64,000 bases of DNA, from contig JAFUJB010000016.1 in assembly GCA_017473865.1 (NCBI GenBank), positions 135,476-199,475 of the forward strand. The letters run 5' to 3'. Below the pieces are notes generated by a model. It made no database searches. It worked only from the letters and a program-made list of their open reading frames with translations, and had not been told where the DNA came from. Source of the DNA: Clostridia bacterium. Lineage in GTDB: Bacteria; Bacillota; Clostridia; Oscillospirales; CAG-272. Positions 2,428 to 52,900 of this stretch are shown here, one piece after another; position 1 is the stretch's first letter; each line of letters begins with the position of its first letter. A program made the translations under genes and the position numbers.

Positions 2428-3656
2428 TCGATTGCGCTTCGCATAATGTCGCCTTCTTTTACTTCAAAAGGCGTTTTTACGTATACGTACATACCGGGGT
2501 GTTGCGCCGAATCAATGGGTTCATTCTTTTCGTTATAAATTTCCTGAACGGTAAATGGGCGTCCCGTTTTTCCGGGGGATAGTATTTCGACCTTATCGCC
2601 GATTTTAAATTTGTTTCTCTGTCTGAAATATGCCATACCTTTTTCAGAGTTATAGCCCTCGGCTACAGCAAAATACGATTGTTCGCATACGTTTTTGTTG
2701 CCCGAGCTTATGTTTGGAACTTCGTTAACCTTGTCGTAGAAATAGCCGGTATGGTATTCGCGGTGGCTGACCGATTCAAGCTCTCTCTTCCAGAGCGGGT
2801 TATATATATAGTTTTCTTTATCTTTGTTGTAGGTGTCAATAGCCATTCTGTATGCATTCGTAACGCAGGCTGTGTAGTAGGCGCTTCTCATTCTGCCCTC
2901 AATCTTAAAGCAGTTTATGCCGCACTCCATAAGGTCGGGAATGTGTTCGATCATACACATATCTTTCGACGCCATAATAAACGTACCCTCATCGGTTTCA
3001 ATAACAGGCATTCTTTCGTTTGGACGCTTTTCTTCCTCGATCTCGTACATTTTATAGTTCCAACGGCAAGGCTGAGAGCAAGCGCCTCTGTTTGCATCGC
3101 GGTTGTTCAGATTGCCTGAAATAAGACATCTGCCGCTGTATGAAATGCACATAGAACCGTGTATAAAGCACTCAAGTTCAAGTTCTTTTGGAATTCTCTG
3201 TCTGATAGCTTTAATTTCGTCAAAGTTAAGCTCTCTGGCAAGAACTATTCTCGATGCGCCCAGCTTGTGCCAAGCATTACAGGCTGCGTGGCTGACCGAG
3301 TTTGCCTGAGTGGATACGTGTATTTCCATATCGGGCAATATTTTTCTGACCGTTTCAAAAACGCCGAGGTCGGAAACGATTAATGCGTCAATATTTGCGT
3401 CTTTTATATCATACAGATATTTTTCGAGTATTTCGTACTCATACCAATGGGGCATCGTGTTTACTGTCAGATAGATCTTTTTGCCTAAAGAATGGGCGTA
3501 AGTCGTTGCTTCAAATATCTGCTCTGTGCTGAAATTTGTTGCAGCAGCGCGCATACCGAATACGTTACCAGCCATATATACGGCGTCGGCTCCGTAGAGA
3601 AGGGCGCTTTTCAGTTTTTCCATATCGCCGGCAGGCGACAGAAGCTCAATACTCAT
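2400..3656 (-). CDS. peptidase U32 family protein
   Basis: N-terminus MSIELLSPAGD..ALLYGADAVY is typical of U32. Start set at the ATG 10 nt after AAGGA; the ORF is open up to 3728. Confidence 0.8.
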   Translation of the reverse strand: MSIELLSPAGDMEKLKSALLYGADAVYMAGNVFGMRAAATNFSTEQIFEATTYAHSLGKKIYLTVNTMPHWYEYEILEKYLYDIKDANIDALIVSDLGVFETVRKILPDMEIHVSTQANSVSHAACNAWHKLGASRIVLARELNFDEIKAIRQRIPKELELECFIHGSMCISYSGRCLISGNLNNRDANRGACSQPCRWNYKMYEIEEEKRPNERMPVIETDEGTFIMASKDMCMIEHIPDLMECGINCFKIEGRMRSAYYTACVTNAYRMAIDTYNKDKENYIYNPLWKRELESVSHREYHTGYFYDKVNEVPNISSGNKNVCEQSYFAVAEGYNSEKGMAYFRQRNKFKIGDKVEILSPGKTGRPFTVQEIYNEKNEPIDSAQHPGMYVYVKTPFEVKEGDIMRSAIDLLSFEERK

Positions 3657-7999: not shown

Positions 8000-10474
8000 T
8001 TATTCTTCATTCTTGAATGCCATTTCGAGATATTCTTCACGGGAAATAAGCACCGTACGGGGTTTCTGACCCTCGGGAGGACTTACAATACCCTTTGTCT
8101 GCATTTTGTCTATGAGTTTTGCGGCTCTTCCGTAGCCGACCGACAGTCTTCTCTGGAGCAGAGAGGTCGATATCTTACCTGATTCAATAGCAAGCTCAAT
8201 TGCTGCACGGAGCAACGGATCTTCGCCTTCTTCGCCGTCTTCGTCAAGGACGCTTCCCTTGCTTTCTCCGCATTTGAGAGCTTCTTTTTCGATTCTTTCA
8301 ATTACGTTAGCGTCATAAGAGCTTACGCCGCTCGTTTCTTTTATAAAGTTTACAATCTTTTCGATTTCAACGTCGGTTACGAATGCGCCCTGTACACGCG
8401 CGGGCTTTGAGAAGCCTACGGGAGCGTAGAGCATATCGCCTCGTCCGATAAGTTTTTCAGCACCCGCAATATCAATGATCGTACGCGAGTCAACCTGAGA
8501 AGCCATAGTGAAAGCGATTCTTGAAGGAACGTTTGCTTTGATAAGACCTGTAACTACGTCGACCGAAGGTCTCTGTGTACCGATTACAAGGTGCATACCT
8601 GCGGCTCTCGCCTTCTGAGCAATTCGGCAGATGGAATCTTCTACTTCTTTGGGGGCTGTCATCATAAGGTCAGCCAACTCGTCGATTACGATAATTATCT
8701 GAGGCAGGAATTCTTTTTCGGGGTCGTCTTTGGTAATTCTGTTATAGCTTGCGACGTCTCTTACGCCTACTTCTTCAATAAGCTCAAAACGTCTGTCCAT
8801 TTCAGATACTGCCCAATGGAGCGAGCCTGCCGCCTTCTTGGGATCGGTTACGACGGGGATAAGCAGATGGGGAAGCCCGTTATACATACTGAGTTCTACT
8901 TTTTTGGGGTCAATGAGGATAAGCTTGACCTCGTCGGGAGTCGCTTTGTAAAGCAAGCTTACGATCATTGAGTTGATGCATACCGATTTACCCATACCCG
9001 TTGCACCCGCGATAAGCAAGTGGGGCATTTTTGCTATGTCGACGTATATGGGAGTACCTGCAACGTCCATACCGAGAGCAACTGTTACGCGGCTCTTGGC
9101 GTTAATAAAGAGCTGATTATCGAGCAGTTCTCTCAAATGAACGATTGATACGTTTTTGTTGGGAACTTCGATACCGACTGCCGCCTTGCCGGGAATGGGG
9201 GCTTCGATTCTTACGCCCGATGTCGCAAGGCTAAGTGAGATATCGTCAACAAGGTTGGCGATGGTACGAACTCTTACGCCCTCCTCGGGAGTAAGCTCGT
9301 ATCTGGTAATGGAGGGACCGCGTGAAATATGGTGTATCTGCGTCTTAACCTTAAAGCTGCGGAGTGTTTCAACGAGCTTGTGAGCCGTTGAACGCATTTC
9401 TTCGCTTATGTCTTCGTTGTTTACGTTTGACGGCGCAGGAAGAAAACTGAGAGGCGGGAATACGTATTCTTTTACGGGCTGTATTTCTTTTACCGGAGCT
9501 TTAATCTCCTCGCCTATAACGGTGCGCTCAACCTCAAGCTCGATTTCTTCGTCTTCCGTATCTTCTTCGTCTTCGCTTTCGTCTTCTTTAGTTTCTTCGT
9601 TTACTTTTTTGACGATATCGTCAAGAGAAACTTCGCCGTCCGTCTCATTTTTCGTAGAGTTTTCAAGGTCCTTCATCGCCTCGTCAAATACGTGAGAGTC
9701 AACGATAATCTCTTGTTCAGGTTCCGTCTCTTCTTCGGGCTCAAGCGCCTCTTCGTTTATGGTAAGCTTTTTCTTGTCGCGGGGGCTGTGCCATACCTTA
9801 GGCTCGCCCTCGTATTCTTCGATAACTTCTTTTGCGTGGCTGAGCTTGTCCTTAATTGTCATAAACGCCGTATAGGGCGTATAACCGCAAAGGAAAGTAA
9901 CGAAAACGAGTGTCAAGGGAATAAATATGCAAAGGGTAAGTATCTTTCCGGTAAATTTAACAAGGAAAGCGGCAATAATTCCGCCCAGCACACCGCCGCC
10001 GTTCCAGTCGTTGCCGTTTTTCCACAGCGTTTTTAAATTCATCGTAAGCTGTGCTTCTGAGGTTGAAAACGAGTGTACAATAACTGCAAACGAAATAAGA
10101 ATAATGATAAAAGAAACTGCTTTAAGCGTTAATGAGTCGTCTTCAATGCTCTTTCTCCACAAAAATGCAATAATTATGAGCATAGGAGATATTATAGCCG
10201 CGCCCCAACCGTACATACCGCAAAGGAAGGGGGTTATGATTTTTCCCGCAAATCCCGAGCTGCCGGGGAATACAAGACAGAAAATAATAGCAAAAGCAAG
10301 CAGTCCCCATACGTAAGGCAATACCTGATGAAGAACACTGTTAGGGTTGGCTTTTTTCTTTTCTTTCTTCTGCGGTGGTTTTTTATCTATTTTCTTTTCG
10401 GTGTCTTTTTTAGCCTTTACGTTTTTACTTGACGTAGTTTTGGGTCTTGATCCTGTTTTTTTGTAAGTAGACAT
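8000..10474 (-). CDS. ftsK: DNA translocase FtsK/SpoIIIE
   Basis: 824 aa. N-terminal TM segments, acidic linker, Walker A GATGMGKSV, DELADLMM, and a C-terminal gamma winged-helix (LLQRRLSVGYGRAAKLID). Confidence 0.9.
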   Translation of the reverse strand: MSTYKKTGSRPKTTSSKNVKAKKDTEKKIDKKPPQKKEKKKANPNSVLHQVLPYVWGLLAFAIIFCLVFPGSSGFAGKIITPFLCGMYGWGAAIISPMLIIIAFLWRKSIEDDSLTLKAVSFIIILISFAVIVHSFSTSEAQLTMNLKTLWKNGNDWNGGGVLGGIIAAFLVKFTGKILTLCIFIPLTLVFVTFLCGYTPYTAFMTIKDKLSHAKEVIEEYEGEPKVWHSPRDKKKLTINEEALEPEEETEPEQEIIVDSHVFDEAMKDLENSTKNETDGEVSLDDIVKKVNEETKEDESEDEEDTEDEEIELEVERTVIGEEIKAPVKEIQPVKEYVFPPLSFLPAPSNVNNEDISEEMRSTAHKLVETLRSFKVKTQIHHISRGPSITRYELTPEEGVRVRTIANLVDDISLSLATSGVRIEAPIPGKAAVGIEVPNKNVSIVHLRELLDNQLFINAKSRVTVALGMDVAGTPIYVDIAKMPHLLIAGATGMGKSVCINSMIVSLLYKATPDEVKLILIDPKKVELSMYNGLPHLLIPVVTDPKKAAGSLHWAVSEMDRRFELIEEVGVRDVASYNRITKDDPEKEFLPQIIIVIDELADLMMTAPKEVEDSICRIAQKARAAGMHLVIGTQRPSVDVVTGLIKANVPSRIAFTMASQVDSRTIIDIAGAEKLIGRGDMLYAPVGFSKPARVQGAFVTDVEIEKIVNFIKETSGVSSYDANVIERIEKEALKCGESKGSVLDEDGEEGEDPLLRAAIELAIESGKISTSLLQRRLSVGYGRAAKLIDKMQTKGIVSPPEGQKPRTVLISREEYLEMAFKNEE

Positions 10475-10495
10475 AATTTCTCCTTTAGTTTTGAC

Positions 10496-11323
10496 TTAGC
10501 CGAATATAATTGCAAGAATACCTACCGCCCAGCAGTAGTACGAGAACATTCTGAAGTTTGATTTTTTTGAGATATAGATAAGAAGCTTCATTGCGATTAT
10601 GCCGACGACTGCCGCCGCGACGGCACCTGCTATGTAGGGGAGTATGTAGCTTGACGGAATGGGGTTTTCAAATACGTCGGCTACAGAAAGGATGTTTGCG
10701 CCGATGATTGCGGGAATGGAGAGAATAAACGAAAATTTAACAGCGTGTTCTCTCTTGAATCCCATAAGCAGACCGCCTGTAATGGTTGAGCCCGAACGGG
10801 AAAGACCGGGAACAATGGCGCACATCTGGCAAAGTCCTACGAATAATGCGTGGCGCGGTTTTTTGTTTTCGAGTGTTACCGTACCCTTTTCAAGCTTGTC
10901 GGAAATAAACAGTACAACGCCGTTAAGAAGGAGTATACCTCCGATAATCTTCGTGTAGTTTCCAAGCATTTCAACGTAGTCTTTGATAAATACTGCAGCT
11001 ACAAGGGGCAGGGTTGCTATTATAACGAAAATTACAAATCTTTCGGTTTCGGTGTATTCGGACAGCTTGAACTTACCCTTGAACACCTTGCCGAGCATAG
11101 TGAAAAATGCAGGGACAAGCTCGAATATGTCTTTGTAATAAACAATAAACACGGCAACGAGTGTTCCAAGGTGCAGGAGAATATCGAAGGTAAAGTGAGA
11201 AGATTCGATGTTTTCCATATTAAATATGTTCTGCGCAATAGCCAGATGGGCAGAACTTGAAACGGGCAGAAACTCGGTTATGCCCTGAATTATACCGTAA
11301 AAAATTGCCATAAATATATTCAT
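10496..11323 (-). CDS. uppP: undecaprenyl-diphosphate phosphatase
   Basis: 275 aa. BacA/UppP motifs GITEFLPVSSSAHL and PGLSRSGSTI. Confidence 0.9.
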   Translation of the reverse strand: MNIFMAIFYGIIQGITEFLPVSSSAHLAIAQNIFNMENIESSHFTFDILLHLGTLVAVFIVYYKDIFELVPAFFTMLGKVFKGKFKLSEYTETERFVIFVIIATLPLVAAVFIKDYVEMLGNYTKIIGGILLLNGVVLFISDKLEKGTVTLENKKPRHALFVGLCQMCAIVPGLSRSGSTITGGLLMGFKREHAVKFSFILSIPAIIGANILSVADVFENPIPSSYILPYIAGAVAAAVVGIIAMKLLIYISKKSNFRMFSYYCWAVGILAIIFG

Positions 11324-13390: not shown

Positions 13391-13482
13391 GCAGAGATGG
13401 CTGAGCTGGTCTAAGGCGCACGACTGGAAATCGTGTGAACGCTAATACCGTTCCGAGAGTTCGAATCTCTCTCTCTGCGCCA
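13391..13482 (+). tRNA. tRNA-Ser (anticodon GGA) with a long variable arm and encoded CCA
   Basis: Acceptor GCAGAGA/TCTCTGC, anticodon loop CTGGAAA, T-arm GAGAG-TTCGAAT-CTCTC, discriminator G plus CCA. Confidence 0.9.
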
Positions 13483-13627: not shown

Positions 13628-13812
13628 TCGGTGTCGGCTTCGCCGTGATTTAATATGTAGAAGTTTAATACGTAGGCAAAAACAAGTAAAGGCGTCTGAT
13701 CCTCTCAAACATCGTCCGAGAGGGCGATGTTTTTTGTTGTATCCCGAAAACCACGCGATAGTGGCGTGGTTCAAAATAGGTTTTACCGTTGAGTAATCCC
13801 GCCGCAGCGGAA

Positions 13813-13964
13813 GGCTCCCTCCGGGAGGGAGCTGGATTTTGCGAAGCAAAAGACTGAAGGAGAGCGCGACACAGTAAAATTTGTAATTAGCATAAGTTTC
13901 GCAGGCTCCTTCCACCACTTCGTGGTCCCCCTTCCTCCCGGAGGAAGGCTTTTATTACAACCCG
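13813..13964 (+). repeat. 152-bp multi-hairpin module, copy 1 (direct repeat of 20649-20800)
   Basis: About 50 nt at the 5' end and 65 nt at the 3' end are near-identical to copy 2. The central ~35 nt differs. Contains hairpins GGCTCCCTCCGGGAGGGAGC, TTTTGCGAAGCAAAA and CCTTCCTCCCGGAGGAAGG. Confidence 0.8.
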
Positions 13965-14136
13965 TTAACGGGTAACTAATATCAATTGCATAGCTGGCAG
14001 GCAAACAAAAAGCGCACTTGTGCGCCGCCAGTATCGGATAGGGCTATGCCCGAAAAATGAATACCACCCGATATGTGTGGATTTTTATTTGTATACAAAA
14101 GAGAGTTGGTATGCTCTGCAGACCAACTCTCTTGTT
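13960..14136 (-). repeat. 177-bp duplicated 3'-UTR module, copy 1 (see 14934-15109)
   Basis: Differs from 14934-15109 at only a few positions. On the minus strand it holds two terminator hairpins (GCGCACAAGTGCGC+T-run; CAAGAGAGTTGGT..ACCAACTCTCTTTTG). Confidence 0.85.
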
Positions 14137-14160
14137 GTAGCCATTATTCATTGCTGAAGC

Positions 14161-14275
14161 AATGTCATATATACCTGATTTTACGTAACTGATTCGCTTA
14201 CTTAGATGTTTGCAGGAGCTTAGATATAATAAGCAAAGCACCGCAACACAGCTCACACAAAAGCCATACTATCGG
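14161..14275 (-). pseudogene. remnant homologous to the 5' (signal/lipobox) end of CDS 15133-15696, now fused to the 3' end of CDS 14198-14641
   Basis: 14161-14260 aligns by eye with 15578-15660 (..atatacctgattttacgtaa(c/t)tgattcgct..gcaggagctta..). The rest of the parental gene is deleted. Confidence 0.55.
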
Positions 14276-14641
14276 AAGAAGAAGTAGAACGTCGCTATTT
14301 AAAATATTTAAAAGACCCATAACAAAAAGATAGAATGAGATTGTTGCTATCGCAGAAAAACAAAGGGCGGAAATCCTCTTTCTTTTAAGCTTTACATCCG
14401 TACAACGAAAAACAGCACGTAATGATAAGAACAATATTGTCGCAGTGATAATTCCAGCCACTGCAGTAATAATAAACCAATTTGATATACCTTTTGCTAT
14501 TGCGAAATCTAACGAATCCCATTCGGGTGGAGGGGTACTATTTATGAATTTAAACTTTTCCACCACACTTACAGGAAGAAAAATTACCCAAAGAATTAGA
14601 TGTACAACTGATGCAATGGTTATTCCTTTTTTGATTTTCAT
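14198..14641 (-). CDS. hypothetical small membrane protein (about 4 TM)
   Basis: 147 aa and hydrophobic. GGAGG RBS plus a consensus promoter. No recognisable motif. Confidence 0.55.
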   Translation of the reverse strand: MKIKKGITIASVVHLILWVIFLPVSVVEKFKFINSTPPPEWDSLDFAIAKGISNWFIITAVAGIITATILFLSLRAVFRCTDVKLKRKRISALCFSAIATISFYLFVMGLLNILNSDVLLLLPIVWLLCELCCGALLIISKLLQTSK

Positions 14642-14676
14642 TTAATTTTCCTCCTTGTATTATGATTTCTGTGTAT

Positions 14677-14705
14677 ATTATACCACATATTACATGGTGT
14701 GTCAA
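14677..14705 (-). promoter_or_regulatory. consensus sigma-A promoter (extended -10) for CDS 14198-14641
   Basis: Minus strand: TTGACA (14705-14700), 17 nt, TGgTATAAT (-10 at 14682-14677). Part of a module repeated at 19534-19642. Confidence 0.75.
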
Positions 14706-14933
14706 TGAAATTATGTTAAATTGCGGGAAAATTAACATAAGGTGTGTTTCGCCCCAAACTGTAAGTGGGACGATTATTGTATTCCGAAAACCGCGCGACT
14801 GTAGTGGTGTAGTTCGATAGAGGTTAATGGATGAAAAGAAACAACCTCATCCGTCTCGGCAGCAAAGTTAGCAGTGGATTGTGATTTAGCGGCCGCCGAG
14901 CCACCTTCCCCCACCGGAGAAGGCTTTAGTAAA

Positions 14934-15109
14934 CCCGTTAACGGGTAACTAATATCAATTGCATAGCTGGCAGGCAAACAAAAAGCGCACTTGTGCGCCG
15001 CCAGTATCGGGTAGGGCTATGCCCGAAAAATGAATACCACCCGATATGTGTGGATTTTTATTTGTATACAAAAGAGAGTTGGTATGCTTTGCAGACCAAC
15101 TCTCTTGTT
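14934..15109 (-). repeat. 177-bp 3'-UTR module, copy 2 (parental copy downstream of the toxin-like operon)
   Basis: See 13960-14136. Confidence 0.85.
15066..15109 (-). terminator. rho-independent terminator of the 19341-15133 operon
   Basis: Minus strand: CAAGAGAGTTGGT-loop-ACCAACTCTCTTTTG. Confidence 0.8.
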
Positions 15110-19597: not shown

Positions 19598-19744
19598 TGA
19601 ATTTATGTTAATTTGTGGCAAAAATAACACAAAGGGGTGTTTCTGGTCTTTTGAGAACAAAAATACTACCAAGGGATTTTGTATAAACCCCTTTTCGGCA
19701 ATATATTTTGGCTCGCGCCTTTATTATTTTTTGTCCTATTATCA

Positions 19745-19792
19745 AAGTTTTGAGGGAGTCAAGAGGGTACTTTTTCAAAAGTGCCCTCTTGT
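19745..19792. repeat. hairpin module AAGTTTTGAGGGAGTCAAGAGGG.AC-TTTTTCAAAA-GT.CCCTCTTGT
   Basis: A second copy lies at 49782-49829. Confidence 0.7.
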
Positions 19793-19912
19793 ATATTTAA
19801 TAAAAAGTTGGTATAATAACCGTAGTTAACCCAAAACATCCCCACTCAACCAACGGTGTGTAGACTGTTTGCACCCAAAGTGTTACACTTATTACAGAAA
19901 GGAGTGAGCGCA

Positions 19913-20558: not shown

Positions 20559-20648
20559 TAAAATAAAAACCACGCTAAGTCTATGTGGTTTGACAGAGGT
20601 TAACTGTTGAGGGAAAAAATAATACAAATAAAAAGGGTTTGTGTCAAA

Positions 20649-20800
20649 GGCTCCCTCCGGGAGGGAGCTGGATTTTGCGAAGCAAAAGACTGAGGGAGAG
20701 CGCGTTATGTTGAAAATATTATATACTGTAAGTTGCGCAGGCTCCTTCCACCACTTCGTGGTCCCCCTTCCTCCCGGAGGAAGGCTTTTATTACAACCCG
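20649..20800 (+). repeat. 152-bp multi-hairpin module, copy 2
   Basis: Direct repeat of 13813-13964. The track ORF 20641-20910 lies inside it. Confidence 0.8.
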
Positions 20801-21090
20801 CTATGCAGGAAGTTTTTTATTCATGCAACAAAATACGGACAGTATATGAAAACTGTAATAAAATAAAGAGTAGGATGTGTTTGTTTTTTTACTACATATT
20901 GTTGGTGTAAACAATGGTTTACAAAATCACACTAAAAGCTTGGCGAATTGTAAGGAAAATTGTAGGTTATTTAAGCCTATGACAACTTTCATTGACAAAA
21001 ACATTATACAAAAGTTGATTGAATTCGCGGCGTTTTTTTGGTAATATAAAAGTGTTATATTATAATAACTAAACAAGGAGAGGTTTTGAA

Positions 21091-23383: not shown

Positions 23384-23393
23384 TATGGTGCAA

Positions 23394-24080
23394 AGAGTCA
23401 GGGAGTTGCCCTGAACCCCTCCCGCTTTTTGAAAAAAGCGGGGCAAAAACTTTACAACATTGGTTTATCTAAACATTATTGTCTATGCAAACCCATTATC
23501 CCTGCGGAGTGGCGGCAAAAGTACCCTTTTGAAACCGCAAAAACTTTTCAATACGGCTTCTGTAAATATGGTAGGGGGTTAACGGGGCGTCGAAATAGGG
23601 GTTCCCCGAAACGCACGAAGTAAGTTTTGGGGGTTCTCGTGTGCGTCGCCCCCTACAAATCAGGTAATATTGTCTCCGCAGACCCATAGGTCGTGCGGCG
23701 TTGCCGCCTTTCCTTAAAAGAAAGTAAGTGCCAAGCTTTTTTTAAGGAATATGGGGATGTAATAGGTTAATTAAACAACAAAAAAGGTATGGCGTAAAAG
23801 GATACACCATACCCATGTTGCAAGTTTTTTTGCCCCGCTTCGCTTTAAATGGGGCGTCGAGGACGTCGCCCCCTACCAATTAGGCAATATTATCTCCGCA
23901 GATCCATAGGCCCTGCCGCGTGGCGGCCTTTCCTTAAAAGAAAGTAGGTGTCAAGCTTTTTTAAGGAATATGGGGATGTAACAAGTAAATTAAACAACAA
24001 AAAAGGTATGGCATAAAGGGATATGCCATACCCAAGTTGCAAGTTTTTTGCCAAGCTTTTTTTCAAAAAAGCGGGAAAGT
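23394..24080. repeat. BIME-like mosaic repeat cluster including two tandem ~190-bp units (23644-23834 and 23864-24052, period 220 bp)
   Basis: Shares modules with 2159-2427 and 49391-49860. Contains REP copies and hairpins GGTATGGC..GCCATACC. Confidence 0.8.
23851..23876 (-). repeat. REP-like element, variant 1 (GGGGCGTCGAGGACGTCGCCCC+CTAC)
   Basis: Imperfect palindrome (8 bp plus a T:T mismatch, loop AGGA) with a GTAG/CTAC foot. Same 26-mer as inside the RayT genes at 26.5 and 34.8 kb. Confidence 0.75.
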
Positions 24081-26325: not shown

Positions 26326-26415
26326 TGAAAATCGGACACATCATAAGGGAAACCCTAAATGATGTGTCCATTTTTGTTGCGAACATCTTAATGCTATGAT
26401 ATAATAACTGTGGTG

Positions 26416-26940
26416 ATGCAAATGGAAGAAAAAAGACCGGAAAGAAAACCGACGAGGATAAAGAATTACGATTACAGCAGAGTCGGTGCATACTTTATAA
26501 CCATATGCACGAAGAATCGAGCAGAGATTTTATGTAACATTGTAGGGGGCGACGTCCTCGACGCCCCGATAAAAGTAAGATTATTACAATACGGAGAAAT
26601 AGCGGAAAAATACATAAAACAATTAAATGAATATTACGAAAATATTTCGGTCGAAAAATATGTAATAATGCCGGATCATATACATATATTAATTGTCGTA
26701 AAAAAGGAAGAAGATACAATACTAAAAGGCGGGGCGTCGAGGACGTCGCCCCCTACAAGACAACATTCGTCTGTGTCAAGATATGTTTCTACATTTAAAA
26801 GGTTTTGTAACAAGGAATACGGAGAAAATATATGGCAAGAATCATTTTTTGACCATATAATCAGAAACAACGAAGACTATGAAGAACATATAAAATATAT
26901 ACACGAAAATCCGACAAAATGGTATTACGAGAATAAATAA
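26416..26940 (+). CDS. REP-associated tyrosine transposase (RayT) / IS200-like Y1 transposase
   Basis: YDYSRVGAYFITICTKNR, HUH motif MPDHIHIL, catalytic-Tyr region FFDHIIRNNEDYEEHIKYIHENP. Start ambiguous (26410/26416/26422). The TGaTATAAT -10 ends 10 nt upstream. Confidence 0.8.
   Translation: MQMEEKRPERKPTRIKNYDYSRVGAYFITICTKNRAEILCNIVGGDVLDAPIKVRLLQYGEIAEKYIKQLNEYYENISVEKYVIMPDHIHILIVVKKEEDTILKGGASRTSPPTRQHSSVSRYVSTFKRFCNKEYGENIWQESFFDHIIRNNEDYEEHIKYIHENPTKWYYENK
26542..26567 (+). repeat. REP variant 1 inside the RayT CDS (GTAG+GGGGCGACGTCCTCGACGCCCC)
   Basis: Exact reverse complement of 26731-26756. Encodes ..VGGDVLDAP.. Confidence 0.8.
26731..26756 (-). repeat. REP variant 1 inside the RayT CDS (inverted partner)
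   Basis: GGGGCGTCGAGGACGTCGCCCCCTAC. Encodes ..GASRTSPPT.. Confidence 0.8.
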
Positions 26941-26992
26941 AACTGGACACATCATGGAATAAAACTCCAAAATGATGTGTCCATTTTTATTG

Positions 26993-27030
26993 ACAAAATG
27001 CTACACACGGGCGGAGCCCGTGTGTAGCGT
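26993..27030 (-). terminator. terminator of ldh
   Basis: CTACACACGGGC / GCCCGTGTGTAG hairpin, with a U-rich tail on the minus strand. Confidence 0.7.
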
Positions 27031-27033
27031 ATA

Positions 27034-27975
27034 TTATATTTTAATATTTTTAATTACATTTTTTAAGCTGTCTGCGCTGTTGTGAAGCTTCATAATTTCT
27101 TCATCGTTCAAAGGAAGCATAACTTTTTCTATAACGCCATTGTTTCCCAGTATATTAATCAAGCTAAGACAAACATCGTGTATACCGTATTCTCCGTGTA
27201 ACATTGTTGATACTGTTAAAGCGGTATCCATTCCGCTTAAAATACACTTGCAAAGATGAGTTACCGATGAAGATACTGCATAAAAAGTAGCACCTTTTTT
27301 ACTTATAATTTCTGCTCCGGATTTGTGTACATATTCCTCTACGCTGTTTTTGTTAAACGCTGGAGTGATAGATGAATTGATGGCAATTCTCTGGTAGTCT
27401 TCAACAAGAACGTTGGAAATATTTGCGGTTGACCAAGGAACAAAAGACGTATCACCGTGTTCACCTAAAACATAAGCGTGAACATTCTTTTGGTTAACAG
27501 AAAAATATTCAGCTATTCTTGATCTCAAACGCGATGTATCAAGAATAGTACCGGAACCAATTATTCTATGTTCAGGAAGACCGGTATGCTTGCAAAAAAC
27601 ATAGGTCAGAACATCAACGGGATTGCTGACAATTACATAAACAGCATCGGGAGCGTATTTTACCACCTGATCTGCAACTTTTTTTAAAACGTCGACATTC
27701 GCTTGAGCAAGGTCGAGTCTTGACTGATCCGCCTTTCTCGCCATTCCCGATGTTATAACAACAATATTTGAATTTTTTGCGTCAGCATAAGTACCCGCAT
27801 AAATATTTGAAGGATGGCAAAAAGGCACCCCTTGCCGAATATCAAGCGCTTCGCCAAAAGCTTTCTCTTCATTTATATCTATAAGAACGATTTCTGAGGC
27901 TAATCCAATTACCATCATCGTATAACCAATGGTTGCCCCCACACTACCGGTGCCAACAATCGTAATTTTGTTCAT
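27034..27975 (-). CDS. ldh: L-lactate dehydrogenase
   Basis: ITIVGTGSVGAT, ITSGMARK, GEHGDTSFVPWS; 313 aa. Confidence 0.9.
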   Translation of the reverse strand: MNKITIVGTGSVGATIGYTMMVIGLASEIVLIDINEEKAFGEALDIRQGVPFCHPSNIYAGTYADAKNSNIVVITSGMARKADQSRLDLAQANVDVLKKVADQVVKYAPDAVYVIVSNPVDVLTYVFCKHTGLPEHRIIGSGTILDTSRLRSRIAEYFSVNQKNVHAYVLGEHGDTSFVPWSTANISNVLVEDYQRIAINSSITPAFNKNSVEEYVHKSGAEIISKKGATFYAVSSSVTHLCKCILSGMDTALTVSTMLHGEYGIHDVCLSLINILGNNGVIEKVMLPLNDEEIMKLHNSADSLKNVIKNIKI

Positions 27976-34471: not shown

Positions 34472-34582
34472 AATAATAAAACATAAACAAAAAATGGACA
34501 CATCATGGAGGAAACCCCCAAAATGATGTGTCCAAGTTTTTGTTGTATATAAGGGTTTTATGTGATATAATTTATTATGGTG

Positions 34583-35083
34583 ATGAGCGTGGAAGAAAAA
34601 AGACCGGAAAGAAAACCGACGAGGATAAAGAATTACGATTATAGCTCTGCCGGTGCATACTTTATAACGATATGTACGAAAAATCGAGCAGAGATTTTAT
34701 GTAACATTGTAGGGGGCGACGTCCTCGACGCCCCAATAAAAGTAAGATTATTACCATACGGAGAAATAGCGGAAAAATACATAAAACAATTAAATGAATA
34801 TTACGAAAATATTTTGGTTGAAAAATACGTTATAATGCCTGACCATATACATATATTGTTGCGTGTGAAAAAAGGGGCGTCGAGGACGTCGCCCCCTACA
34901 AGACAACATTCGTCTGTGTCAAGATATGTTTCTACATTTAAAAGGTTTTGTAACAAGGAATACGGAGAAAATATATGGCAGGAATCATTTTTTGACCATA
35001 TAATCAGAAATAACGAAGACTATGAAGAACATATAAAATATATACACGAAAACCCGACAAAATGGTATTACGAGAATAAATAA
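34583..35083 (+). CDS. REP-associated tyrosine transposase (RayT) / IS200-like Y1 transposase
   Basis: Same motifs as copy 1. Start ambiguous (34577/34583). The TATAAT -10 sits at 34566-34571, so the mRNA may be leaderless. Confidence 0.8.
   Translation: MSVEEKRPERKPTRIKNYDYSSAGAYFITICTKNRAEILCNIVGGDVLDAPIKVRLLPYGEIAEKYIKQLNEYYENILVEKYVIMPDHIHILLRVKKGASRTSPPTRQHSSVSRYVSTFKRFCNKEYGENIWQESFFDHIIRNNEDYEEHIKYIHENPTKWYYENK
34709..34734 (+). repeat. REP variant 1 inside the RayT CDS
   Basis: GTAGGGGGCGACGTCCTCGACGCCCC. Confidence 0.8.
34874..34899 (-). repeat. REP variant 1 inside the RayT CDS (inverted partner)
   Basis: GGGGCGTCGAGGACGTCGCCCCCTAC. Confidence 0.8.
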
Positions 35084-35171
35084 AACTGGACACATCACAA
35101 TGGAAAACCCCAAAATGATGTGTCCGAACTTTTTTTAATAGAGTTTTTGCGGAGCTTTTTTCAAAAAGCGA

Positions 35172-38431: not shown

Positions 38432-38648
38432 AAAAAAGACTCGGCTGAATAGTCTATCATTCGGTCAAGTCTTTTTTATTCTCATAATACTGTTTTATTG
38501 GGTTATCGTGAATATATTTCCGTCTTGTTTCGTAATCCTCTCTGTCGCGGATTATGTGGTCTGCAAATGAACGTTGAAAAATATTGTATCCAATCTCTTT
38601 GTTACAAAACCTTTTGAACGTAGAAACAATATGTGGCAGCATTTCATT

Positions 38649-38675
38649 GGTAGGGGACGGCGCCCTCGACGTCCC
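38649..38675 (+). repeat. REP variant 2 inside RayT copy 3
   Basis: GGTAGGGGACGGCGCCCTCGACGTCCC. Confidence 0.75.
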
Positions 38676-38818
38676 TTTTGGCTTTGAATCTTTACCGATA
38701 AATATTATTGCGTGTATGTGGTCGGGCATAATAACATATTCATCGATTTTTACACCTTGAATATTTTCACTTGACAATAAATATTTCTCAACAATTTTGC
38801 CTATCTGTGTCAAATTTT

Positions 38819-38844
38819 GGGACGTCGTGGGCGCCGTCCCCTAC
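38819..38844 (-). repeat. REP variant 2 inside RayT copy 3 (inverted partner)
   Basis: GGGACGTCGTGGGCGCCGTCCCCTAC. Confidence 0.75.
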
Positions 38845-39021
38845 CGCGTAATTGTTCGTTTCGCTTACGGAGGGATTATTTGTACATATTATTTCTGACA
38901 ATATTTGTTTTCTGTCTTGCGTACATATCGTTACAAAATATGCACCAACAGAGCTGTAATCGTAATTTTGTATTCTTGTTGGTTTTCTTTCGGGATAATT
39001 AATATCCATAAATATTCCTTT

Positions 39022-44895: not shown

Positions 44896-44979
44896 CAAGA
44901 AGGCTATACACGGGCTTTGCCCGTGTATAGCCTTTATCAAATGCAAGAGAGTGTGTGCGGAGCACACACTCTCTCTTGT

Positions 44980-49388: not shown

Positions 49389-49474
49389 AAGGCGGTCCCT
49401 ACTTTCTTTTAAGGAAAGAAAGTAGGCAAAGAAACCTTGCAACATGGGTTTGCAGAGGCAATATTGCCTAATTG

Positions 49475-49499
49475 GTAGGGGACGGCGCCTCGACGTCCC
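49475..49499 (+). repeat. REP variant 2 (GTAG+GGGACGGCGCCTCGACGTCCC)
   Basis: Same variant as inside RayT copy 3. Confidence 0.75.
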
Positions 49500-49732
49500 G
49501 TTTAAAGCGAAGCGGGGCAAAGAAACCTTGCAACACGGGTTTGCGTAAGCCGTGAAGCATATTAAATAATGGTAGGGGAGGGGCTTGCTCCTCCCGCTTT
49601 ATTTTTTGGGAAAGAAAGTAGGCAAAGGCGGCAACGCCGCACGACCCCGCTTTTTTGTAAAAAAGTGGGGCAAAAAACTTCAAACATGGGTTTAAATAAG
49701 CCATAATGTATAATTAACATTGGTAGAAACGG

Positions 49733-49757
49733 GACGTCGAGGCGCCGTCCCCTACCA
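49733..49757 (-). repeat. REP variant 2, inverted partner
   Basis: GGGACGTCGAGGCGCCGTCCCCTAC. Confidence 0.75.
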
Positions 49758-49861
49758 AATTTACAAAACTCGTTAAGAAAAGTTTTGAGGGAGTCAAGAG
49801 GGCACTTTTTCAAAAGTACCCTCTTGTGTGGTTTCGGGAGCGAAGCTCCTGACTGTTTATA

Positions 49862-49908
49862 CAATAAATAAAATGGCTACACACCGGCGTCGCCCGTGTG
49901 TAGCCATT
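49862..49908 (-). terminator. terminator of the GH gene
   Basis: AATGGCTACACAC..GTGTGTAGCCATT followed by TTTATTTATT on the minus strand. Confidence 0.75.
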
Positions 49909-49911
49909 ATT

Positions 49912-52900
49912 TTAATAACCTTTAATCATATTTAAGAAGATGGTGTTGATCTTCCACTTATATCCGGGGATAGTGGATATTCTGAGTTTGATATATTCAT
50001 CGTCGCTTTCGTTGACCAAGGGGAGAAGCTTGCATTGGTATCTTCCTTTTTTAACTACCTCACCGCCGGCTTTTCTGCCGTTAACAGCTTCAACGATGGT
50101 TACGCTGTCTTCTTCATTATCTCCAGAGACGACAAGCATTTCGTACTGACCGCGGGGATTTTCAATAATAAATTCAACAGGCTCAGTACCTTCAACAAAG
50201 TCGCGTCTGAGTATATCGTCGGTACCTCTGTCAACCGCTTTAATGTTTTCTTCGGTGTTAAAGCCAAATCCGCGTTTGTATGTAAACGCCAGACTGTCTT
50301 CATCGATATGAATAAACGGCAGGCTGAATATAGCGCGTCTGTCTGCAACGTAAGCCTGACGCATAAATGCCCAAGCGTATTTTTTATCCTTGACTGGTCC
50401 GAAATCGAACTTATAGAGCGTATGGTTATCCATACGGGTATTTCCGAGATACCAGCTTCGAATAAAGTTGTCGATTGCTTTATAATACTCTGTATCTTCG
50501 TTCTCGCCCACGAAAAGTCTGCGTTTGGTATATGATTCTCTTTCGAGGACTTCGGTGTTGTATTCGTTACCGAACGTAAAGGGAGTGTACGCGCTGGCGT
50601 CTGCAGATACGGTGTAGCTCTTGCCCTCTTCGGTTTCAAAGGTAATTACGTTGTTTTCAAGGCTGAATTCAACCGGCTTACCATCGCAGAATACTTTAAG
50701 GGTATTATCCATAAAGGGAGAGGTAAGTCTGACAGAACCGCCCTTATTGCTTGTGATATATACCCAAGCAAGCTTGTTATCTTTGAGTTCTGCACTGATT
50801 TCAAAAGCACCCTTAGCAAGCAGGCGGTCAAAGCGTGCGTTTTCCCAGGCATCGTACTTGTTGTAACGGTCAATGTATTCCGCATAGGGATAACCCTTTT
50901 TATGCATACGCTCCATTTCGGGATCGCCGTCGGGAATAGCAGGGAATATGCGTATAATGCCGTTGTGGGACTGGAGCAGCATTTCGTTTACTGCCGCGAG
51001 CATTTCACCGGTAAATTCCATCATACAGGGATAGTAGAGCATCTGACGGGGCATAAGACAGTAGTTTATAAAGTGGTCTGTCTCTTCTGCAGTAAGTCCG
51101 TTTGAACGGAGCATATGATCTATACCTCTTTCGTATAACAAGCGCAAAGCGGTCTGACCTCTGCCCAATCTTGCTGCCGCTGCTGCCAACCAGCTGCAAG
51201 CAAATATGCTTATTTCGGAATTGTCTTCGATATGGTCAACGGTGTTTGACCAGTACTGATATGCCTCTTTGTCTGTATCGAAATCGAATTCGCCGATAGG
51301 ATAGAGGGGCATAAGTAAGCTCGGATGGCGGAGCCACTGGTTGTCGGGTGTGTCGGGAGAATCGTTGTAGTGTACTCCGTGCATATTGTTAGGTTTGCTT
51401 AAAGCATACTTAGGCAGTCTCTCCATAAGGTGTCTGAATTTTTCGAGAAGGGGAGAATTGTCTCCGAGTATTTTTGCGGATTCAAGAGTAAACTTAAGGA
51501 GATATTTTGCGGAAGCTACCGTAATTGTCGTATTGTGAGCAAGGGGTCCTTGTTCGGGAGAAATGTCGGGATATACGTTATACGTGTCGGTCTCTTCGTC
51601 GTATTCAAATACCTGAAGAAGATTTTCAGCTATCTGTACGAAGAGAGGATACGCGTCATTTCTCAGATATTCGGTGTCAAGACTGTATTCGTAAAGGAAC
51701 CACATATACTGAGCGCACCAAGGCATAAGGCTGTAATAGAAGGGGTGCGGATAGTCTGCAGCAACGCCTGTGAAATTATGTTTGTCTCTTGCAAACTTTT
51801 TCGCATTTTCGACATAACAAAGAAGTCCGTCGGAGAATATCTTTGCCCAGTCAAGTCTGTTTGACGAAAATGCACCTGCAAACGATGCCTGAATATTTGC
51901 GTCCCAGTACCACTTACTGCCCCAAAGATTAGGACGTTTTACGTCCCACAGACCGTTAAGACCGCAAGCCTGATGCTTCATAATGCCGTCTTTGCCCGAG
52001 GAGCAGTCGAGCGTATACATATTTACGTAATAAACGTTTTCAAGGAATTTGTCGGGGATGGAAATATTGCCGCGCGTAAAGAAGTCGTCCCAGTATTCTT
52101 TGTGTTCTTTGTACATTTCCTGCAAATTACTTTCGTATTCGCGGATTGCAGTTACTACGTCGTTTTCGGGATCTGAATATTTCCACTCGGTAACAACAGC
52201 GGTGAGCATAGTAAAGTCTTTGCCCGCTTTTGTAATTTTTATATCCGCGCCAAACTCGCTTTCAACAAGCGTACCCTCAGCTCCGATAAGGTTGATTGCA
52301 CCCGAGAAAACGAATGTTTTCGACGAGGAGTCGGGACCTTGAATTTCGTTTGTTACGGTATATACAAAAGTATGGTTGTCTACCTGTTTATAGTCAACTT
52401 TCGGCAGATCGAGATCGCGGAAGGGGTTAAATACAACGTGTACAGTATCAACAAGGCCTTCGTCGCTCTGCTTGAATTTGTTGATAATACAGTCTTTTCT
52501 TGCTACGATGGTTTCTATATCGAGCTTTTTCTCGTCTTTTTCAAGAGAGAGAACGGTTTTTGCATCCTGTACGAACAGGGAGAGATTGCTGTCGGCTTTG
52601 TCGAGGTCTTTGCTGAACGTAAATTCAACGTCGCCTGTAAGAGGGAAGCTTGCAGAAAAACTGCCTATGGCATAGTAGTCGCGGTTAAAAGCGCCTCGCT
52701 TCCACGTGCCGTAAAACGTGTATGGCTCGTTTCCGTTAGGAATATTATGGTCAGCCTGCTCTTTTCTCTGTCTGTGGTAGGCACCCGGATCTTTTTCAAT
52801 AGCACCGTTTGCAAGATATTGGCTCGGCAGAACGTGCTTTCTTATGTTATAGTATATTTCGTAGTGGTTCATGGGCATAAACAGACGGTTATTTTCGTAA

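Follow-up and report, generated by a model that had tools for sequence, protein, structure and literature searches.

In a 64,000-nt stretch of a Clostridia bacterium genome (GCA_017473865.1, contig JAFUJB010000016.1, positions 135,476 to 199,475, forward strand; hereafter the window), three genes resembling rayT, the gene for the tyrosine transposase (RAYT, or TnpA_REP) associated with repetitive extragenic palindromes (REPs), each contain two GTAG-footed hairpins that lie in frame and in inverted orientation on either side of the codons of the catalytic HUH motif. We propose that these 26-nt elements are probably genuine GTAG-type REP hairpins, situated in frame within the codons for two surface loops in a RayT/TnpA_REP-like gene, i.e. 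that the enzyme's own REPs lie inside its gene. In the REPtrons known from E. coli (yafM), Pseudomonas and Stenotrophomonas, the tnpA_REP/RAYT gene is instead flanked by REPs or by bacterial interspersed mosaic elements (BIMEs) (PMC2817692, PMC3333891, PMC3479197, PMC8266576). Far from a local accident, the internal pair is standard across a large clade of rayT-like genes in Clostridia, and it is as DNA, separately on each strand (GTAG foot, hairpin and internal mismatch), and not as peptide that its arms are kept constant.

The inverted pairs had been predicted from the letters of the window, and they are indeed present in all three genes, in frame and on either side of the P-D-H-I-H codons (Table 1). 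Two REP sequence types occur, each with a matching gene and matching extragenic copies, giving nine hairpins of types 1 and 2 in total, six within rayT genes and three intergenic. The original prediction had taken the 26-mers to be identical in all genes and intergenic sites; this holds for copies 1 and 2 and for the intergenic type-1 site, whereas copy 3 and the intergenic doublet belong to type 2, and the second arm of that doublet, earlier placed at 49733-49757, is located at 49731-49755 on the reverse strand. The type-1 26-mer, GTAGGGGGCGACGTCCTCGACGCCCC, has five exact sites in the window, with none expected from dinucleotide shuffles. In copies 1 and 2, which are 91-96% identical, the inverted arms extend over 28-29 nt at 100% complementarity and are spaced by 161 nt and 139 nt; the type-2 arms of copy 3 differ from each other by one loop base, and the intergenic doublet is a 32-nt inverted repeat, 100% complementary, with its arms 223 nt apart. 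Relative to each other, copies 1 and 2 show a single indel, of 24 nt and directly 5' of arm 2, and the frame of copy 3 changes at an A4T3 run immediately 3' of arm 1; both sites are REP edges, as had been noticed before.

Table 1. Positions of rayT-like genes, their REP arms, extragenic REPs and bounding hairpins in the window.
Feature	Position	Strand	Description
rayT-like copy 1	26422..26940	+	Open reading frame; 172 amino acids from ATG; HUH/Y1 nuclease; Pfam Y1_Tnp 22.9 bits; NCBIfam REP_Tyr_transpos 75.5 bits
Copy 1 arm 1, type-1 REP	26542..26567	+	GTAG + GGGGCG-A-CG TCCT CG-A-CGCCCC; encodes VGGDVLDAP
Copy 1 arm 2, type-1 REP	26731..26756	-	GTAG foot antisense; sense strand encodes GASRTSPPT
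rayT-like copy 2	34577..35083	+	Open reading frame; 168 amino acids; structure model; best PDB match 4er8_A
Copy 2 arm 1, type-1 REP	34709..34734	+	Exact 26-mer match
Copy 2 arm 2, type-1 REP	34874..34899	-	Exact 26-mer match
rayT-like copy 3, divergent paralogue	38457..39009	-	Open reading frames 38788-39009 and 38457-38813 overlap; Pfam Y1_Tnp on C-terminal part
Copy 3 arm 1, type-2 REP	38819..38844	-	GTAG-GGGACGGCGCCCACGACGTCCC; encodes VGDGAHDVP
Copy 3 arm 2, type-2 REP	38650..38675	+	GTAG-GGGACGGCGCCCTCGACGTCCC; gene strand encodes GTSRAPSPT
Extragenic type-1 REP	23851..23876	-	Exact 26-mer copy, within mosaic intergenic repeat cluster
Extragenic type-2 REP, left arm of intergenic inverted doublet	49475..49499	+	Loop 1 base shorter
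Extragenic type-2 REP, right arm of intergenic doublet	49731..49755	-	Loop 1 base shorter
Bounding hairpin GGACACATCAT..ATGATGTGTCC, left boundary of copy 1 unit	26334..26369	+	
Bounding hairpin, right boundary of copy 1 unit	26945..26982	+	
Bounding hairpin, left boundary of copy 2 unit	34496..34533	+	
Bounding hairpin, right boundary of copy 2 unit	35088..35125	+	

The encoded protein combines an HUH motif with a catalytic tyrosine in a Y1 (IS200-like) fold, as is characteristic of RAYT/TnpA_REP. For the window genes, Pfam yields no more than a weak Y1_Tnp match, and the best-scoring NCBIfam model by far is REP_Tyr_transpos (NF047646), at 75.5 and 79.4 bits relative to a curated cut-off of 80; the transpos_IS200 model reaches 21 bits, with a cut-off of 55. 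A profile of 24 homologues has a single match among PDB sequences, E. coli TnpA_REP (4er8, E 3e-9), and the AlphaFold model of copy 2 (mean model confidence, pLDDT, of 76) likewise has 4er8_A as its best fold match (E 1.8e-7), followed by the IS200/IS605 TnpAs of ISDra2 and IS608. H90 and H92 of the HUH motif, Y155 and N159 are invariant among the aligned homologues, with Y155 aligned to the catalytic Y115 of 4er8. The predicted location of the REPs within the open reading frame (ORF) of a TnpA_REP-like gene is accordingly borne out by family models and by both sequence and fold matches. In the model, the arm-encoded residues 45-53 and 100-108 are the lowest-confidence loops outside the disordered N-terminus, the arm 1 peptide forming the loop between beta1 and alphaA, and the arm 2 peptide the loop after the HUH strand. 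Both are absent or shorter in TnpA_REP and in the homologues of loci L057 and L071, in agreement with the earlier suggestion that the encoded peptides occupy surface loops that are reduced where internal REPs are lacking. TnpA_REP has a gap opposite GASRTSPPT in the alignment, at a position just N-terminal to helix alphaC, which binds the hairpin (contacts from PMC3479197). The DNA contacts of TnpA_REP include the equivalent of R21, just after beta1, which contacts GTAG, and K82 in helix alphaC, which contacts the hairpin (PMC3479197). From the alignment and these contacts, it follows that the loops encoded by the REP arms likely adjoin two DNA-contacting elements of TnpA_REP.

The family is large, with 4,639 proteins at E <= 1e-5 in a 90%-identity collection, and 29,835 clusters at E <= 1e-3, 728 of them at E <= 1e-30, in a 50%-identity collection. 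We sampled 80 genomic loci (1.17 Mb) from different Clostridia species bins (Oscillospiraceae, Acutalibacteraceae and others), all sequences analysed being metagenome assemblies. Searched blindly for the best inverted repeat spanning the HUH codons, about 70 genes yield a 26-33 nt pair that starts with GTAGGG, arm 1 being located ~126-131 nt before the HUH codons and arm 2 ~35-60 nt after them. Exactly one GTAGGG upstream and one CCCTAC downstream of these codons are present in 74 of 82 gene instances (the 80 loci and the window). In 71 of 72 genes GTA falls in frame 0, arm 2 keeps one and the same frame throughout, and 113-235 nt of coding sequence lie between the arms. Internal inverted REPs, unlike the classical flanked layout, are in this way found in the window and in ~90% of the homologous loci.

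The same trait is visible in the wider family at the peptide level. Using dynamic programming for reverse-complement compatibility on 147 diverse representatives of the 50%-identity clusters, we detect compatible peptide pairs with a score of 8/8 in 33 and of 7/8 in 20 representatives, compared to 0 and 5 in the null, and an anchored VG.../...PT pair in 61 of the 147. The pairs are highly diverse (e.g. VGEDIILP/GKMISSPT, VGDGSPVP/GTGDPSPT and VGADAHIG/PMWASAPT), and all start with VG and end with PT, corresponding to GTNGG and CCNAC. A second subfamily (42-47% identity; VGADAHIG/PMWASAPT type), in genomes of 48-62% GC, has an unrelated hairpin in the same two loop slots, GTAG followed by a perfect 9-bp hairpin, GGGCCGATG-CCCA-CATCGGCCC. 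With three rayT-like genes in the window and two each at loci L003 and L078, the single copy per genome that is typical of RAYTs (Bertels 2017) does not apply here.

It is conceivable that such peptides are conserved as functional loops, VGGDVLDAP and GASRTSPPT being under selection as protein and their reverse-complement relation arising as a by-product, and they are near-invariant among the closest homologues. However, the synonymous sites are frozen as well. GASRTSPPT and VGTGVLDCP are each encoded by only 2 DNA versions in 11 genes, and GPSRTPVPT by 2 versions in 14 genes that differ only at the base after the element, compared to 54 versions in 61 genes for the control motif TFKRFCNK and 21 in 22 for MPNHIHL. 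The GC content at third codon positions (GC3) is 0.75 in the arms vs 0.39 in the remaining gene. The peptides are moreover wholly different between REP types, yet always reverse-complement compatible, and form the low-confidence loops that are missing or short in the homologues named above. Protein-level conservation as the cause is rejected by the synonymous-site and GC3 test, and we regard selection on these loops as extremely unlikely; the nucleotide motif itself is what is conserved, contrary to what would be expected had the original prediction mistaken a peptide motif for a REP.

The constraint extends over the structure of each arm. Across 49 distinct arms, G1, T2, A3 and G4 are invariant on both strands, and the hairpin ....((((((.((....)).)))))). 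is paired in 99.2% of cells. Five of eight stem pairs show double-sided change (65 cells), a result reached in none of 500 shuffles, with slid controls at 49% or less, and the predicted DNA folding energies range from -8 to -11 kcal/mol. The unpaired position within the stem (A.A or G.A) is retained across arms, reminiscent of the bulge or mismatch required by E. coli TnpA_REP (PMC3479197). The arms hence display both hallmarks of GTAG-type REPs, a 20-40 nt palindrome folding as a hairpin with compensatory change and a conserved 5' GTAG. Between arm 1 and the reverse complement of arm 2, there are no base differences in 30 genes, one in 24, two in 11, three in five, four in two and more in four, concentrated at one loop base and the outer edge. 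Where the two arms are heterotypic (L038, L048, L070, L078, L165 and L166), each has its own compensated stem; in L165, the arms are GGCACGATG..CATCGTGCC and GGCGCGATG..CATCGCGCC, each self-compensated, and L166 behaves likewise. Since each arm compensates its own stem, the local GTAG hairpin on each strand is the constrained unit.

These data also bear on whether the arms act in the transcript, pairing mutually or folding locally to throttle a potentially harmful nuclease as an RNase III substrate or a translation block. Such a role would agree with the 0-1 mismatches between the arms of most genes and with the sense transcript of 34690-34920, for which a 28-bp perfect long-range helix is predicted (minimum free energy -85.5 kcal/mol, z = -9.1). 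Nevertheless, a duplex requires complementarity only, whereas GTAG is invariant on both strands and is present in arm 2 on the antisense strand alone. The heterotypic arms (L078 with 6 mismatches, L165, L166, L038 and L048) disrupt the long helix while their local hairpins persist, and there is no G-U bias in the sense RNA, as the arm mismatches comprise 24 sense-compatible, 18 antisense-only and 22 compatible with neither. The same 26-mer is furthermore dispersed in extragenic DNA, and no Rfam family reaches its gathering score, with sub-threshold miRNA-precursor noise only, on the long hairpin. A long-range RNA duplex as the main constraint is rejected by the heterotypic arms, the absent G-U bias and the GTAG kept on both strands, and we judge an mRNA-level explanation improbable. 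The predicted 28-bp transcript helix is a consequence of the local hairpins and may have regulation as a side effect.

Beyond the genes, the exact type-1 26-mer is detected in at least 82 metagenome stretches. Among the matches listed, 59 sites are resolvable, with 51 outside any rayT homologue, as defined by tblastn with a single query, and 8 within genes; 26 more are too near contig ends. The extragenic copies occur in many different contexts, often beside other GTAG hairpin types, so the 26-mer is not restricted to rayT genes. The invariant foot and the covarying hairpin substantiate the REP structure, GTAG plus an imperfect palindrome, that had been ascribed to the elements. In the 1.17 Mb of the 80 loci, stable GTAG-footed hairpins number 152 within rayT genes and 77 outside, compared to 4-14 for five control feet. 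Within 10 kb on either side of the genes, the cognate REP types have 15 matches in 11 of 68 loci, vs 4 for ~13 control cores per locus; cognate types are accordingly enriched near their own gene but sparse. Dense cognate REPs around the genes, as opposed to this thin scatter, were not found in the 68 loci, and none lie near L164-L166.

A more classical layout is seen in a few relatives. The close homologue at L071 lacks internal REPs, has shorter loops and carries the same REP doublet on both flanks (9867-9964 and 10491-10588), in a locus dense in GTAG REPs of several types (also 1545-1770 and 3003-3440). A REP doublet is located just upstream of the genes at L074 and L076, and a single REP upstream of that at L057; L057, L071 and L074 still keep a '..PT' remnant. 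In a search for sequence common to both gene flanks, only L071 (the REP doublet) and the window (an unrelated hairpin) gave a result.

Several further repeats accompany the extragenic REPs of the window. Intergenic clusters at 2150-2430, 19730-19830, 23390-24080 and 49390-49830 share short modules (e.g. CCTTAAAAGAAAGTAGG and GCAAAGAAACCTTGCAACATGGGT) in both orientations, with the REPs sitting within them, and resemble BIME-like mosaics. A perfect GTAG-footed hairpin at 49571-49596, GGTAGGGGAGGGGCTTGCTCCTCCC, represents a further type without a matching gene in the window, and at 23570-23656, GGTAGGGGG and CGTCGCCCCCTAC, parted by ~70 nt of unrelated sequence, look like a split or decayed type-1 REP or doublet. 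A third palindromic repeat family, GCTACACACGGGC..GCCCGTGTGTAGC, with CTAC/GTAG in the stem, is located at gene ends (26995-27038, 44898-44941 and 49871-49914), and is possibly a terminator family or another class of REP.

The main rival to the proposal that the enzyme's own REPs reside in its gene sees the arms as selfish passengers whose uniformity comes from re-copying. REPs would then have been tolerated in two permissive loops without a role for the gene, with uniformity maintained through gene conversion from a REP pool or between the arms, and with landing possibly helped by the enzyme acting near its own gene. In-frame REPs are known in other genes (PMC3733652), and array length in the slots is freely variable: P0129 has an in-frame REP array with ~6 copies in slot 1 and ~5 in slot 2, arrays are likewise present in P0127, P0241, P0152, P0170 and L050 (4698-5351), L003 and L026 have two arm-1 copies, and tandem arrays lengthen the protein by up to ~100 residues while the ORF stays open. 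In P0123, slot 1 encodes a REP peptide of opposite orientation. There are also homologues that lack internal REPs, and in these the catalytic residues are retained. REP types also appear to be exchanged as wholes, since both arms differ in type between L004 and L008, whose proteins are 86% identical, as if cassettes had been replaced, and since one and the same extragenic flanking context contains type 1 at 23824-23907 and type 2 at 49444-49526, from which the hairpin behaves as an exchangeable cassette.

On the other hand, independent insertions would scatter, whereas the arms occupy the same two codon positions and frame in two subfamilies (42-47% identity) and in at least 41% of diverse clusters. 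Few arms are decayed (~4 of roughly 150), extragenic donors are sparse or absent near many genes, and heterotypic genes keep a compensated stem in each arm. The earlier view of the REPs as insertions does not hold as worded: the encoded loops are shorter in homologues without internal REPs, but the fixed, frame-locked slots shared by the two subfamilies are not recent insertions. We consider passenger status possible but rather unlikely. Two further observations concern the arms. A stop codon (TAG for CAG) is found within arm 2 of an otherwise intact homologue (L020:10001-10513); taken with the frameshifted copy 3, it points to a tendency of inactivating changes to fall in or beside the arms. 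At L078:9500-10504, tandem rayT-like genes each carry two different REP types, with the near-same arm-2 type, one loop base apart.

Several points weigh against our proposal. The binding and cleavage it assigns to the encoded enzyme are extrapolated solely from homologues of E. coli, Stenotrophomonas and Marinomonas. The REP_Tyr_transpos scores stay slightly below the curated cut-off. Cognate extragenic copies near the genes are few, and a role of the internal arms as a seed for dissemination is therefore weakly supported. The REP type does not track the protein: mean protein identity is 0.63 for same-type pairs vs 0.56 for different-type pairs, the same type is shared down to 45% protein identity, and with such clear exceptions the case for strict co-evolution between REP type and the remaining protein is weak. 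Either recognition does not involve the variable stem bases, or the specificity resides elsewhere. The frozen sequence could also come from repeated re-copying (gene conversion) instead of a benefit to the gene. Finally, the data are drawn entirely from metagenome assemblies.

With enzyme-own REPs inside the gene as the preferred reading, we envisage the following mechanism. The catalytic HUH segment serves as spacer between the two REPs of an intragenic doublet ('inside-out REPtron'), in which arm 1 has its GTAG foot on the sense strand (beta1-alphaA loop) and arm 2 on the antisense strand (loop after the HUH strand). When the gene becomes single-stranded, through replication or transcription, each arm would fold as a GTAG-footed hairpin and be bound and processed by the encoded enzyme, presumably in the manner described by the biochemistry of E. 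coli TnpA_REP (PMC3479197, PMC3333891, PMC8266576). Enzyme and substrate would in this way be inseparable by recombination or transfer, and the internal arms could seed extragenic REPs of the same sequence. The gene itself would be a target of its product, which would limit the enzyme's own activity; being its own target would also explain the in-frame REP arrays and the indel and frameshift at arm edges.

Two bolder ideas on the function of the arms seem less credible. Inverted repeats around a catalytic segment resemble invertible switches, and an extragenic doublet of the same geometry exists at 49475/49731, raising the idea that the HUH-coding segment flips or drops out between the arms by site-specific inversion or excision, turning the gene off and on. 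Yet the segment is in forward orientation in 73 of 73 scanned gene instances, a weak test as consensus assemblies would hide minority states, and the inverted orientation, read from the sequence, meets stop codons. HUH/Y1 enzymes, furthermore, act on single strands, and none is known to invert duplex segments. Such a switch is in our view very unlikely. The second idea is that the arm-encoded loops help to read the stem, so that the DNA hairpin would encode part of its own recognition surface. Self-referential specificity of this kind would explain the 86%-identical proteins with different REP types in both arms and the coexistence in one genome of paralogues with different types, and, if true, a REP cassette swap would change substrate and enzyme specificity in one step; we rate it as quite doubtful.

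Compared to known systems, the arrangement is closest to the REPtron. Shared features are an HUH/Y1 nuclease with TnpA_REP as best sequence and fold match, 5' GTAG-footed hairpins with a mismatch or a perfect stem, corresponding to the two REP groups of Corneloup et al. (PMC8266576), two inverted gene-associated REPs, extragenic copies of the same hairpin, and a relative, L071, that is flanked classically. In contrast to REPtrons, the REPs of the window family are inside the ORF, are translated in two loops and bracket the HUH segment only, not the whole gene. Extragenic copies near the window-family genes are also few, one 26-mer is common to many species, and a genome holds several paralogues (64 kb contain three here, of which two are near-identical), in contrast to the single copy usual for RAYTs. 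Like REP doublets forming hairpins (REPINs), the arms are two inverted RAYT-associated REPs predicted to be able to pair as one long hairpin in the single strand. They differ in that their 113-235 nt spacer is essential coding sequence and not a short non-coding linker, and in that joint movement of the doublet is not known; the extragenic copies frequently stand alone or have different spacers, and the complete internal doublet was not seen dispersed elsewhere. Intragenic REPs and Rickettsia palindromic elements (PMC3733652) are likewise GTAG-tagged palindromes that are translated and tolerated in permissive regions, with arrays of tens of residues. However, their hosts are unrelated genes (uvrA, dnaE2 and others), at species-specific sites that are not conserved across homologues, whereas here the host is the REP nuclease gene itself, with slots and frame conserved across a large family.

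The insertion sequences (ISs) of the IS200/IS605 group have the same fold, and copies 1 and 2 each form part of a duplicated unit of 630-650 bp between direct copies of one hairpin. Unlike in IS200/IS605, the REPs are inverted and inside the gene, not direct, and transpos_IS200 scores far below its threshold, as stated above; the bounding hairpins are terminator-like and unrelated to GTAG REPs, so that the elements do not qualify as IS200/IS605. The hairpin GGACACATCAT..ATGATGTGTCC is followed by T-runs and occurs in only these four places in the window. As a general IS end it was rejected, being absent from 162 other loci and from the flanks of other homologues. The units at 26334-26982 and 34496-35125 look like either an IS200-style unit or a gene caught between two terminator copies. 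Separately, unrelated direct repeats (157-178 nt, 89-99% identical) are present at 13811-15109 and 20647-20803, downstream of tRNA-Ser (13391-13482).

In the published descriptions consulted, REPs are placed beside the gene (Nunvar 2010, PMC2817692; Bertels & Rainey 2011; Ton-Hoang 2012, PMC3333891; Messing 2012, PMC3479197; Bertels 2017; Quentin 2018; Corneloup 2021, PMC8266576), and intragenic REPs are described in unrelated genes only (Di Nocera 2013, PMC3733652). The original prediction knew of no description of REPs inside rayT, and our search, which included the literal peptide and DNA strings and had most subscription-journal papers outside its reach, found none either. GTAG REPs and RAYTs themselves are already known; REPs inside the rayT ORF are a new arrangement within the REP/RAYT system.

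In conclusion, a large branch of the RAYT family, from gut Clostridia that are mostly uncultured, keeps REPs inside the ORF of the rayT-like gene, under clear constraint at the DNA level. REPs are among the most abundant bacterial repeats, and their spread and co-evolution with the RAYT nuclease are unsettled. The genes described here represent a self-contained enzyme-plus-substrate unit of ~500 bp that is directly synthesisable and testable, and their natural 'cassette swap' series can be used to map which features of the hairpin the enzyme recognises. In the annotation of gut metagenomes, gene callers and repeat finders will be misled by the GC-rich arms, the in-frame arrays and the arm-edge frameshifts. 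For the biology of the family, one DNA stretch is under a double constraint, that of coding and that of single-strand structure on both strands, which may explain why the same 26-mer persists across species with enzymes that are 45-70% identical.

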